Below are positions 11,535-14,126 of a stretch of 64,000 bases of DNA, one piece after another. Source of the stretch: Nitrospirota bacterium (GTDB lineage Bacteria; Nitrospirota; UBA9217); NCBI GenBank assembly GCA_035623825.1, contig DASPSR010000048.1, forward strand, positions 18,369 through 82,368. The letters run 5' to 3'. The first letter of the stretch is position 1, and the number at the start of each line of letters is the position of its first letter. Below the pieces are notes generated by a model. It saw nothing but the letters and a program-made list of their open reading frames with translations, made no database searches and was not told the origin of the DNA. The translations under genes and the position numbers were made by a program.

Positions 11535-11732
11535 TTACTTTTTAGCAGGCTTTTCCGGAGCCGGAGCTGGCATAGGCGCCGGAGCTGGAGCCGGCGCAGG
11601 CGCCGGGGCTGGAGGGACAACAACAGGCTGCTGCTCAGCCGGTTTTGGTGCCTCAGCCTTTTTCTCGCATCCAACGAGAGCAAACGTAAAAACGAATACC
11701 AGGGCCAATATGAAAGCAATGTATTTTTTCAT
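11535..11732 (-). CDS. Small Pro/Ala-rich lipoprotein
   Basis: Signal peptide with LVGC lipobox, then (PA)n. Strong AGGAGG RBS and its own terminator. Confidence 0.75.
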   Translation of the reverse strand: MKKYIAFILALVFVFTFALVGCEKKAEAPKPAEQQPVVVPPAPAPAPAPAPAPMPAPAPEKPAKK

Positions 11733-11824: not shown

Positions 11825-12052
11825 TTAAAGAATCCTCGTTGCAATGGATCGAGTAACGGTAAGTTCCTTTACCTTCTGGCCGAGCTGTTCTTCCATGACC
11901 TGCTGCTGCTCTTCACTGAGACGGAGACGGAAGACCCTGAGTTTATTCAATGACCGCTTCGTGAGATAGATTTCGCGAAGCTCAAAACCGATCTGCTTCT
12001 TGATATCTGCAGTCTGCTGCGGAGTGAGCGTTAGTTTAACGTTCTCATCCAT
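11825..12052 (-). CDS. Hypothetical 75-aa protein with an internal duplication
   Basis: GGAGGG RBS; two similar halves, LTLTPQQTADIKKQIGFELREI and LRLSEEQQQVMEEQLGQKVKEL. Confidence 0.65.
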   Translation of the reverse strand: MDENVKLTLTPQQTADIKKQIGFELREIYLTKRSLNKLRVFRLRLSEEQQQVMEEQLGQKVKELTVTRSIATRIL

Positions 12053-12134
12053 TGAACGGACCCTCCATAAATTTTTATTATAGGCCCTTTCTTATGGAAA
12101 TTCAAGATATTTCTACAAAGAGAAATCAGAGAAA

Positions 12135-12380
12135 TCATTGTTCCGTTCTGATTACTATGACTTTTTCCACCCAGGGGAATTCTCCGGTTAATTTCTCCTC
12201 CAGGCCCTGAACCAGGGCTATCCGAGTTACATGTCAGCGCCAGCAGAATCCGGTAGGTGCAATCTTGACGGTTCCTCCGTCAACTCCCGCGAACTGGATA
12301 TCGCCGCCCCGGCCTTGGTATTGCCGCGACAGGATACCAACCATCGCTTTAATCTGTTCGATATCGTTTTCTTTACTCAA
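12135..12380 (-). CDS. NifU/Nfu C-terminal-domain protein with an in-frame UGA (CxxU), predicted 81-aa selenoprotein
   Basis: TTG start after GAGGAGG. Translation: MSKENDIEQIKAMVGILSRQYQGRGGDIQFAGVDGGTVKIAPTGFCWR-UGA(12236-12234)-HVTRIALVQGLEEKLTGEFPWVEKVIVIRTEQ. This fits the Nfu pattern GGDI...V...G.CxxC....L..G.E..L...P.V..V on both sides of the UGA. Confidence 0.8.
12204..12218 (-). promoter_or_regulatory. SECIS-like hairpin downstream of the NifU UGA
   Basis: GCCCUG-GUU-CAGGGC starts 15 nt after the UGA, with G first in the apical loop. Confidence 0.65.
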
Positions 12381-12437
12381 ACGATCCTCCTCGAGATTGT
12401 ACGACGTTGAGAGTGAAACGCTCAGATTGAATTGTCT

Positions 12438-14126
12438 TCACTCTTCCATTACCAGTTTCTTCGCCATTCTCTCGACCGCCTCTTCAATCTTCACCTTTTC
12501 CACCAGTCCGGTCTTCCGCTCTTTCAATTCAACAAACCCTTCTTTAAGGTTCTTCTCACCGATAATTATGCGGTGCGGGATGCCGATGAGATCGGCGTCT
12601 TTGAACTTTACTCCTGCCCGTTCATCACGATCGTCCATCAGGACCTCGAACCCTTTTTCCTCCAGTGACGTGTACATATCCTCGGCAATGTCCATGGACT
12701 TAACGTCCTTGATGTTTACTGGCACGATCAGAATCTGATATGGAGCGATCGACCGGGGCCAGATGATTCCATTCTCGTCGTTCCCTTGTTCGATGGCCGC
12801 GGCCGCTATCCTGGCGGGCCCGATTCCGTAACTTCCCATGATAATCGGCTTTTCCAGGCCGTTCTCGTCGAGATAGTTCGCCCTGAGCGGAACCGAATAC
12901 TTGGTCCCCAGTTTGAAGATGTTCCCGATCTCGATCACCCGTTCGATGCGGATCGGCTTTCCGCACTGAACGCAGGAGTCGCCAGCAGCGGCAGTGTGAA
13001 TGTCAGTGAACTCCGCCTCAAAGTCCCTTCCCGGCTGCACGCCCTTGACGTGGTATCCCTCTTTGTTTGAGCCGGCGACGTACAGTCCTTGTGTAAGCGA
13101 TGAATCAGCGATCTTTCTGATCTTGTGAACCATAGGGCCGATAAAACCAGCCGGTACGCCAAGGATATCCTTCACTTCTTCCTTTTGCGCAGGCCGGTGC
13201 GACCCGATGATCTTCGCAAGCTTCTTTTCGTGCAGGGTCTGGTCCCCGCGCACCAGAGCGAGAACCGGCCCCTTTTCGCCCATCATGAGGATGGATTTTA
13301 TGAGGAGGTCAGGCGTCAGTTTCAGGAAGCGGGAGACCTCTTCGATCGTCCGCTTTTCCGGTGTGGCGACTTCCTCATACTTCCAAATGGGGAATTTCGG
13401 TGTCTTCGGCACGGACACTGCAAGCTCCACGTTCGCCGCATATCCGCAGGCGTCGCAGAGCGCAACCTCGTCCTCGCCAGCCGGCGAAGGCGCCATATAC
13501 TCGTGCGCCATTGAGCCTCCCATCATGCCCGTGTCGCTCTGGACCACATAGAACTTGATGCCGCACCGGCTGTAGATCTTGTTATACGCCTCGAGGTGGA
13601 GCTGATAGGACCTGTCGAGCCCTCCTTCGTCGCGGTCAAAGCTGTAGGAATCCTCCATGATGAATTCGCGAGTCCGCAGCACACCACTCTTGGGCCGCGC
13701 CTCATCCCTGAGCTTTGTCTGGATCTGGTACCAAATCTGCGGCAGGTCTCTGTATGAGCGGATATCGTGGGCAGCAAGCCACGTCATAGTCTCCTCATGC
13801 GTCATGGCCAGACACATATCGCGGCCGCTGCGGTCTTTCATGCGGAACATCTCGTCTCCAATGGCGTCCCAACGCCCGGTCTGCTGCCAGACCTCTGCCG
13901 GGTTCAGGACGGGCATGGCCACTTCCTGGCCGCCAATGGCGTTCATCTCTTCCCGGATTATCTGATTGATCTTCGCCATCACGCGTTGACCGAGCGGCAG
14001 ATAAATGTAGAGGCCCGCTGCGAGCTGACGAACATAGCCGGCGCGCACCATGAGCTTGTGCGAAACTGCCTCGGCATCAGCGGGCGCTTCCTTCAGCGTC
14101 GGGATGAAAAGATGGGAATAACGCAT
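12438..14126 (-). CDS. proS: Proline--tRNA ligase (with editing insertion domain)
   Basis: SHKLMVRAGY, THEE, QIQTKLRDEARP, REFIMEDSYSF, IEIGNIFKLGTKYS, MGSYGIG, DADLIGIP. Confidence 0.97.
   Translation of the reverse strand: MRYSHLFIPTLKEAPADAEAVSHKLMVRAGYVRQLAAGLYIYLPLGQRVMAKINQIIREEMNAIGGQEVAMPVLNPAEVWQQTGRWDAIGDEMFRMKDRSGRDMCLAMTHEETMTWLAAHDIRSYRDLPQIWYQIQTKLRDEARPKSGVLRTREFIMEDSYSFDRDEGGLDRSYQLHLEAYNKIYSRCGIKFYVVQSDTGMMGGSMAHEYMAPSPAGEDEVALCDACGYAANVELAVSVPKTPKFPIWKYEEVATPEKRTIEEVSRFLKLTPDLLIKSILMMGEKGPVLALVRGDQTLHEKKLAKIIGSHRPAQKEEVKDILGVPAGFIGPMVHKIRKIADSSLTQGLYVAGSNKEGYHVKGVQPGRDFEAEFTDIHTAAAGDSCVQCGKPIRIERVIEIGNIFKLGTKYSVPLRANYLDENGLEKPIIMGSYGIGPARIAAAAIEQGNDENGIIWPRSIAPYQILIVPVNIKDVKSMDIAEDMYTSLEEKGFEVLMDDRDERAGVKFKDADLIGIPHRIIIGEKNLKEGFVELKERKTGLVEKVKIEEAVERMAKKLVMEE

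Follow-up and report, generated by a model that had tools for sequence, protein, structure and literature searches.

The stretch of DNA analysed in the current study (the window, 64,000 nt in length) is part of contig C43 of a Nitrospirota genome, GCA_035623825.1 (G000 below; 3.24 Mb in 67 contigs, 89.65% complete). Directly downstream of proS, on the minus strand, lies a small gene for a protein related to the iron-sulfur (Fe-S) cluster carrier Nfu, in which an in-frame TGA is predicted to be read as selenocysteine (Sec). The gene and its product are referred to as Sec-Nfu, and the features that belong to it are as follows.

12386..12392, minus strand: Shine-Dalgarno-like GAGGAGG, read from the sequence, 5 nt before the start codon
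12380-12378, minus strand: TTG start codon, read from the sequence
12138..12380, minus strand: predicted Sec-Nfu coding sequence for 81 residues, opening with TTG and with Sec at position 49
12243..12245, minus strand: TGC codon of Cys46, first residue of the CxxU motif, found in 30 of 30 rows of alignment A6
12234..12236, minus strand: in-frame TGA read as Sec49, aligned to the second Cys of the Nfu CxxC motif
12204..12218, minus strand: hairpin GCCCUG-GUU-CAGGGC, resembling a selenocysteine insertion sequence (SECIS), starting 15 nt after the UGA
12135..12137, minus strand: true stop codon, also TGA, from the translation with TGA read as U

A preliminary description of this DNA had proposed a hidden minus-strand frame at this place, opened by a TTG after GAGGAGG and running for 81 codons with one in-frame TGA, and each of these elements was found where it had been described. 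The frame consists of 48 codons, the TGA and 32 further sense codons before the stop. The codons between the TGC of Cys46 and the in-frame TGA are TGG and CGC, the residues around the recoded codon read G-F-C-W-R-TGA-H-V-T-R, and translation with TGA as U gives ...APTGFCWR-U-HVTRIALVQGLEEKLTGEFPWVEKVIVIRTEQ. In orthologues, GGAG-type sites precede the aligned start. A listing of open reading frames (ORFs) under genetic code table 11 gives only a 48-codon stub, 12234-12380. The first in-frame ATG, GTG or TTG of the window sequence after the TGA is 22 codons downstream, so that re-initiation cannot produce the conserved downstream stretch. As long frames in G000 end in TGA more often than in any other stop codon (709 of 1561), the codon is not generally reassigned in this genome.

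Relatives of the gene in public genomes belong to uncultured Nitrospirota. When 31 related genomes were searched with the protein, nine (G000 and eight others) had a strong match, at 99 bits or above, each with exactly one in-frame TGA and each reading G[FY]CWR-TGA-H[VI]TR; all 8 close orthologues, which are 55-70% identical, have TGA at the aligned position, and the weaker matches, none above 38 bits, come from ordinary Nfu genes. A scan of genome contigs covering one genome per species (genome_contigs; 185,579 species) returned 24 loci, 21 of them from Nitrospirota. All 21 carry TGA at the same site and share 51-68% amino acid identity with the gene; in L072 a frameshift precedes the TGA. 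Two loci from Psychrobacter and one from Prevotella were set aside, the two of these three that were translated being chance motif matches in stop-filled frames. Within the phylum, a profile search of 401 Nitrospirota genomes found 49 with a match at E <= 1e-8. Thirty-five of the 401 genomes (the carriers) match at 62 bits or above, and the in-frame TGA is present in 35/35, over three families: f1 (24/64, a count that takes in G000), f13 (3/5) and f24 (8/14). In one carrier the gene is split by a frameshift. The remaining 14 of the 49 have canonical Nfu matches only, at 44 bits or less, and G011, whose sole match is canonical Nfu, is not a carrier; counting it and leaving out G000 gives a tally of 24/63 for f1. 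No Cys form of Sec-Nfu was seen among the 401 sampled genomes, none of which has TGC or TGT at the site, among the genome_contigs loci or among 1.84 billion public protein representatives.

Metagenome runs from peat hold near-identical DNA, and the contigs of four further peat runs, which may stem from one sampling campaign, span 12234-12236 with no difference listed there. No RNA run is among the sequencing runs listed as holding this DNA. Frameshifts break the Sec-Nfu gene in L072 (around 4100) and at G227:C3:377418-377647, and break selA at G001:C10:284212-285600; the assemblies concerned consist of a small number of long contigs, so the breaks probably reflect sequencing errors and not decay.

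The preliminary description had also expected gene callers to truncate the gene, and this is what public protein sets contain. In one protein search, 13 of 13 matches were N-terminal halves of 46-55 residues (56-59% of the query), unnamed or labelled 'hypothetical protein', and the best representatives end right before the UGA. A profile search of the 1.84 billion representatives gave 98 matches at E <= 0.001, and 24 of these were fetched. Twelve are N-terminal pieces that end exactly at the C-x-x before the TGA, with the motifs CWR, CWQ, CYR, CRR and CHR; another N-terminal piece (P0076) ends a few residues short of the Cys, five are C-terminal pieces that begin after the TGA, and one runs on into unrelated residues. 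The other five (P0016, P0017, P0019, P0020 and P0022) are full-length Cys-type Nfu proteins. Among these, P0016 (with GACAGC) scores highest, at 46 bits, whereas the nine top-scoring half-length fragments of the Sec clade reach 65-82 bits. A repeat is seen in two long proteins, P0012 (1184 aa) and P0028 (733 aa), which match the profile's strand region (about 26-62) 12 and 6 times over, respectively.

The sequence after the TGA evolves as coding sequence. Across 31 distinct sequences, the mean pairwise differences in the 28 codons that follow the TGA are 0.30, 0.18 and 0.49 at codon positions 1, 2 and 3, and the median ratio of non-synonymous to synonymous substitution rates (dN/dS) is 0.23 (380 pairs). 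These figures indicate that the 28 codons are under purifying selection.

That both halves of the frame belong to an Nfu domain had been suggested from their appearance, and was borne out by profile searches. Against Pfam NifU (PF01106; cut-off 27), the full 81-residue product obtained by reading through the TGA scores 41.2 bits, and a six-frame search of the genome gives a match of 33.5 bits that spans the TGA. No other Pfam family matches the product at E <= 1. No NCBIfam model claims it, the NfuA and NifU equivalogs scoring far under their cut-offs, and release 20 (June 2026) of NCBIfam contains no matching model specific to the Sec-Nfu family. An AlphaFold2 model, built from the 30-row alignment A6 (25 Sec-clade rows plus five Cys-type Nfu rows), has a mean predicted local distance difference test score (pLDDT) of 86.6 and consists of a helix, two strands, a short turn, a long helix and a strand. 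Residues 45-48 (FCWR) form a short helical turn, with U49 between this turn and the long helix, and the Cys46/Sec49 turn follows strand 2 and precedes the long helix. The 48-residue stub would break off within the domain, in the short turn ahead of that helix. The top Foldseek matches to the model were 2z51 (Arabidopsis CnfU), 2m5o (the C-terminal domain of human NFU1; TMq 0.87) and 1veh. The significant matches are Nfu domains and include no thioredoxin-fold entries; profile matches to solved Nfu structures agree with an Nfu fold. By sequence and predicted structure, the 81-residue protein is a paralogue of the Fe-S cluster carrier Nfu and consists of one domain, that of the NifU C-terminus.

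Alignment A6 also upheld the placing of the UGA on the second Cys of CxxC, the TGA column being occupied by that residue in 5/5 Cys-type Nfu rows. The canonical Nfu motif is G-x-C-[AS]-[GSTC]-C-[PG], while all 25 Sec-clade rows read G-x-C-[WY]-x-U-H-x-T-R. The first Cys is thus kept and the second is Sec (UGA), and the flanking residues differ in 25/25 rows. In a maximum likelihood tree of 25 Sec-type and 22 Cys-type sequences, the latter including canonical Nfu paralogues of carrier genomes, all Sec forms fall on one side of a single long branch (support 100/99). Sec was scored as Cys in this analysis, so that column does not cause the split. A canonical CxxC Nfu paralogue coexists with the Sec form in 9 of 9 carriers looked at.

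Bacterial SECIS elements are hairpins lying just 3' of the UGA with a G near the start of the apical loop, that of E. coli fdhF having a GGUC loop, and the hairpin considered here was compared with the numerical criteria of the bSECIS model. The hairpin GCCCUG/GUU/CAGGGC that had been noticed 15 nt after the TGA, with G first in its loop, proved to be conserved with covariation. Its parts are GCCCTG (12218-12213), GTT (12212-12210) and CAGGGC (12209-12204), and it can alternatively be read as a 5-bp stem with the loop GGUUC. Across orthologues, a 6-bp stem begins 14-15 nt and the loop 20-21 nt after the UGA, the loop starting with GGU, which is invariant or nearly so (G34 and U35 are invariant). 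Among the 23 f1 sequences, 97.1% of stem cells pair, and the stem-closing pair is A-U in 11 sequences and G-C in 8, at synonymous positions. When eight f13/f24 sequences are added to these 23, the peptide encoded at the hairpin is A-L-V-x-G in f1 and D-L-V-x-V/A or S-L-V-E-A in f13/f24; in this 31-sequence set 92.5% of cells pair, with compensatory changes on both sides in 3 of the 6 pairs. Shifting the partner by one column lowers pairing to 57.5% (slide -1) or 75.3% (slide +1), and 0 of 500 shuffles reached the observed paired fraction or covariation score, a statistic that is inflated by the relatedness of the sequences. An RNAalifold consensus over a longer region contains 22 pairs, the covariation tests covering the 6-bp apical hairpin. 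Hairpins also follow the TGA in the main FdhA gene and the selD gene of G000, and in its two FdhA-like genes a GC-rich stem of 6 bp is found at a similar distance from the TGA, its loop, GGUCU, starting with the same GGU as that of Sec-Nfu. The hairpin GUGGCC-GGUCU-GGCCAC is common to both of these FdhA-like genes.

Given these comparative data, it is highly probable that the frame is a real selenoprotein gene overlooked by annotation. The comparison between genomes likewise gives good support to the view that the Sec-containing Nfu-like family is a new selenoprotein variant of the Nfu family.

The genes and sites that flank the Sec-Nfu gene in the window are listed below.

12438..14126, minus strand: proS, the upstream gene, 57 nt away, from the ORF list
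12077..12105, minus strand: promoter-like TTGAAT-17-TATAAT, just past the stop and before the small gene 11825-12052, with 10/12 consensus matches
11825-12052, minus strand: 75-residue ORF directly downstream, with its own promoter-like site

No promoter-like or terminator-like site was found between proS and the Nfu-like gene, and the two are probably co-transcribed; the TTGAAT-17-TATAAT site marks the 3' boundary of this unit. Upstream proS is present in 20/21 genome_contigs loci, the exception (L058) having just 36 nt of upstream flank. The order of proS, Sec-Nfu gene and 75-residue ORF is that of f1 in 20/21 loci, with ispG upstream in 18 of them. In the families f13 and f24 the gene on the upstream side, on the same strand, is a TIGR01212 MnmL/YtqA radical S-adenosylmethionine (radical-SAM) tRNA-modification gene (8/8 loci). 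It is immediately upstream in f13, and an antisense nitroreductase gene intervenes in 5/6 f24 loci. The latter is a nitroreductase-family gene in L095, L096, L098, L099 and L101 (at about 930-1440 or the mirrored place), L100 having only a 42-residue remnant at 1885-2010. The 75-residue ORF occurs in all 21 loci, cut by a contig end or a frameshift in two of them. Its amino acid identity (71-97%) exceeds that of the Sec-Nfu gene in the same loci, and it has no Pfam or NCBIfam match. It was considered as a partner of the Sec-Nfu gene and rejected as not tied to it, since the f13/f24 loci lack it. Both IspG and the radical-SAM enzymes contain [4Fe-4S] clusters, and such enzymes as neighbours fit a carrier role.

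On the interpretation favoured here, the mRNA would probably be made together with that of proS. At UGA-49 the ribosome would meet the GC-rich hairpin 14-15 nt downstream, whose apical loop starting with GGU would recruit SelB with Sec-tRNA(Sec); Sec would then be inserted at position 49 and translation would go on for 32 codons. Cys46 and Sec49 would sit at the site where a cluster is bound between two Nfu subunits, and the protein could act as a specialised carrier of a [4Fe-4S] (or [2Fe-2S]) cluster with mixed S/Se ligation, serving [4Fe-4S] enzymes such as the adjacently encoded MnmL/YtqA radical-SAM enzyme or IspG, while the canonical CxxC Nfu of the same genome would do the general job. 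This model is adopted because of the homology, the fold, the retention of both ligand positions and the neighbouring genes. Taken as a whole, a selenoprotein that is also a specialised Fe-S carrier with Cys/Sec ligation is a tentative proposal, falling a little short of an even prospect once its Fe-S step is included. A sharper form of it is possible and rather doubtful: a protein dedicated to Fe-S trafficking that has selenium as a direct ligand of a transferable cluster, the Cys/Sec set tuning lability or oxidation resistance, and that supplies the tRNA U34-modifying MnmL/YtqA in two families and IspG in f1, making it the first Sec-containing Nfu carrier. A bolder variant of the trafficking idea would have it deliver selenium or persulfide to the tRNA-U34 modification pathway.

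Several observations weigh against these proposals. In the Sec clade the small residues of the Nfu cluster loop (C-A/S-G/S-C-P) are replaced by an aromatic and a variable, often basic, residue, followed by an invariant His-x-Thr-Arg, an arrangement more reminiscent of a catalytic or redox site, which could stand in the way of a cluster that bridges subunits. The long branch separating the clade from all 22 Cys-type Nfu sequences may mean that the function has changed. The neighbourhoods come from related lineages, so the synteny may be inherited rather than functional, and in G000 two Radical_SAM_C (MnmL-type) genes sit on other contigs. As to the hairpin, the 72 nt that follow the UGA, folded as a single sequence, do not outperform shuffled sequences (z = +1.05), so that the case for it rests on the comparative data, and it overlaps conserved codons (A-L-V-x-G), so coding accounts for part of its conservation. 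Lastly, selA, selB and tRNA-Sec were not found in the G000 assembly.

The last of these points concerns the capacity to insert Sec, for which the preliminary description had looked to a complete selABCD set. Only a part of this set, selD, is present in the assembly, with selA, selB and the tRNA-Sec gene (selC) not found. The selD gene of G000 itself has an in-frame TGA (LSHGAG-TGA-ACKLGP); so do FdhA (1394 bits, one in-frame TGA) and the two FdhA-like genes. These four genes of known selenoprotein families (one FdhA, two FdhA-like, selD) are at G000:C39:37092-40241, C22:13498-14232, C60:4807-5547 and C48:65582-66493. In G002, a genome of the same genus (99% complete), RNase R, selA, selB, two transporter genes (a major facilitator superfamily member, MFS, and KefC) and tRNA-Sec lie within 12 kb (L104, G002:C81:7000-19000). 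None of six proteins of this region has an orthologue in G000, RNase R finding only a 30%-identical paralogue, despite a DNA identity of 72-84% between the two genomes around proS; the absence is for this reason put down to an assembly gap, and the simplest reading of the comparison is that the whole selA-selB-tRNA-Sec region of G000 is unassembled or unbinned rather than lost. The missing genes are outweighed by selD and the three genes of the FdhA type with an in-frame TGA. In the 401-genome sample, selA is present in 33/35 carriers compared to 160/366 non-carriers, the two carriers without it being G000 and G009 (96% complete). A tRNA-Sec above threshold was found in 5/5 carriers checked: a single match in G002, G008 and G178, and in total two tRNA-Sec-like matches in G012 and three in G047. 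The extra matches above the Rfam threshold are at G012:C9:389439-389529 and at G047:C2:51094-51184 and C2:28292-28378, and may be SelC*-type or other unusual tRNAs.

These data bear on two explanations that would do without Sec at position 49. It is very unlikely that the UGA is recoded via SECIS and SelB with Cys being inserted, partly or in some lineages, by a SelC*-type tRNA(Cys). Mukai et al. (PMC5389517) do report selC* tRNA(Cys) genes in Nitrospirae and Thermodesulfovibrio, and two of the five carriers checked (G012 and G047) have the extra tRNA-Sec-like matches, but the same-genus G002, as well as G008 and G178, has a single one, selA and a Sec-requiring selD are present in the lineage, and if Cys were tolerated TGY would be expected in some of the 35 genomes, where none was seen. 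Scarcely credible is the view that the TGA is not recoded at all, being a real stop after a 48-residue peptide, the mark of a pseudogene or an assembly error, with the Nfu similarity downstream a relic. It has on its side the 48-codon ORF of standard gene calling and the failure to find selA, selB and tRNA-Sec in the assembly of G000. A relic, however, would not hold 32 codons open at a dN/dS of 0.23 in three families, nor a covarying hairpin at a fixed distance; the TGA recurs in contigs of the four further runs and in 35/35 genomes, and the stub would stop inside the modelled domain, before its long helix.

Much closer to the carrier proposal is the possibility that the protein is a selenoprotein on an Nfu scaffold that does not carry clusters. 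Cys46-x-x-Sec49 would then form a redox-active selenenylsulfide couple, as for instance in a persulfide, disulfide or peroxide reductase, and the invariant His50 and Arg53 would be catalytic or anion-binding residues. The remodelled motif fits a redox or catalytic centre about as well as it fits an Fe-S carrier: the C-[WY]-x-U-H-x-T-R pattern holds in 25/25 Sec-clade rows, and AlphaFold2 puts the CxxU into a short helical turn that links a strand to the long helix. The long branch from canonical Nfu and the coexistence of a CxxC paralogue in every one of the nine carriers looked at point the same way, and the May 2026 review of selenoproteins (PMC13188914) states that redox motifs of the UxxC/CxxU type occur in many uncharacterised selenoproteins, most of which are probably redox proteins. 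The protein nevertheless has no similarity to thioredoxin-fold or Rdx families (Pfam gives NifU only, and the structural matches are Nfu domains), keeps both cluster-ligand positions strictly, and has [4Fe-4S] enzymes as neighbours, with no gene for a redox partner such as thioredoxin reductase in the flanks examined. A redox role is regarded as quite possible without being probable.

Comparison with known systems places the protein nearest to the Nfu/NifU C-terminal domain proteins (PF01106; 2m5o, 2z51, 1xhj, 1veh), with which Sec-Nfu has in common the domain, the predicted fold, the single-domain size and the two aligned ligand positions. It differs from them in having UGA/Sec as the second ligand and W/Y, x, H, x, T, R in place of small residues and Pro, in its own long branch, and in coexisting with a canonical Nfu. 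The SelW-like/Rdx redox selenoproteins (PF10262), in which the CxxU motif is located at a strand-to-helix junction, share the order Cys-x-x-Sec, but Sec-Nfu has neither a thioredoxin-like fold nor a sequence match to them, Pfam giving NifU only. HesB/IscA proteins are A-type Fe-S carriers. A Sec-containing relative of these, the HesB-like selenoprotein (TIGR01911), is given as experimentally verified in Table 1 of the 2026 review, and is a precedent for Sec in a small protein of an Fe-S biogenesis family, though of an unrelated fold and family and with the motif UxGP rather than CxxU. This review also lists several predicted Sec-containing Fe-S proteins, which resemble Sec-Nfu in having Sec at or beside a predicted cluster-ligand Cys position, but are cluster-containing enzymes or ferredoxin-like proteins outside the Nfu carrier family. 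With the verified HesB-like selenoprotein and these predicted proteins, the general idea has precedent.

Table 1 of the review comprises 119 selenoprotein families and subfamilies and has no NifU, Nfu or PF01106 entry. A NifU/Nfu selenoprotein was likewise not found among the papers listed by full-text literature searches, in a 2022 review, the deep-Sep main text and three supplements, or Peng et al. 2016, two source papers of the 2026 table (Haft & Tolstoy 2025 and Deng et al. 2026) lying outside this comparison. Sec-Nfu would add a well-supported family to the prokaryotic selenoproteome, one that is common in uncultured anaerobic Nitrospirota (35/401 sampled genomes), and it exposes a systematic annotation error, in that public protein sets hold only its N- or C-terminal fragments, unnamed or as 'hypothetical protein'. 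Should Sec ligate a cluster, the family would offer a natural system for the effect of selenium ligation on Fe-S cluster stability and transfer; should it be part of a redox centre, the Nfu scaffold would have been re-used for selenium catalysis.

Further along the minus strand of the window is a 65-residue ORF (11535-11732) without a Pfam match. Its start resembles a signal peptide that ends in Cys, and it contains a Pro-Ala repeat (PAPAPAPAPAP). A strong terminator-like hairpin follows it at 11498-11479.

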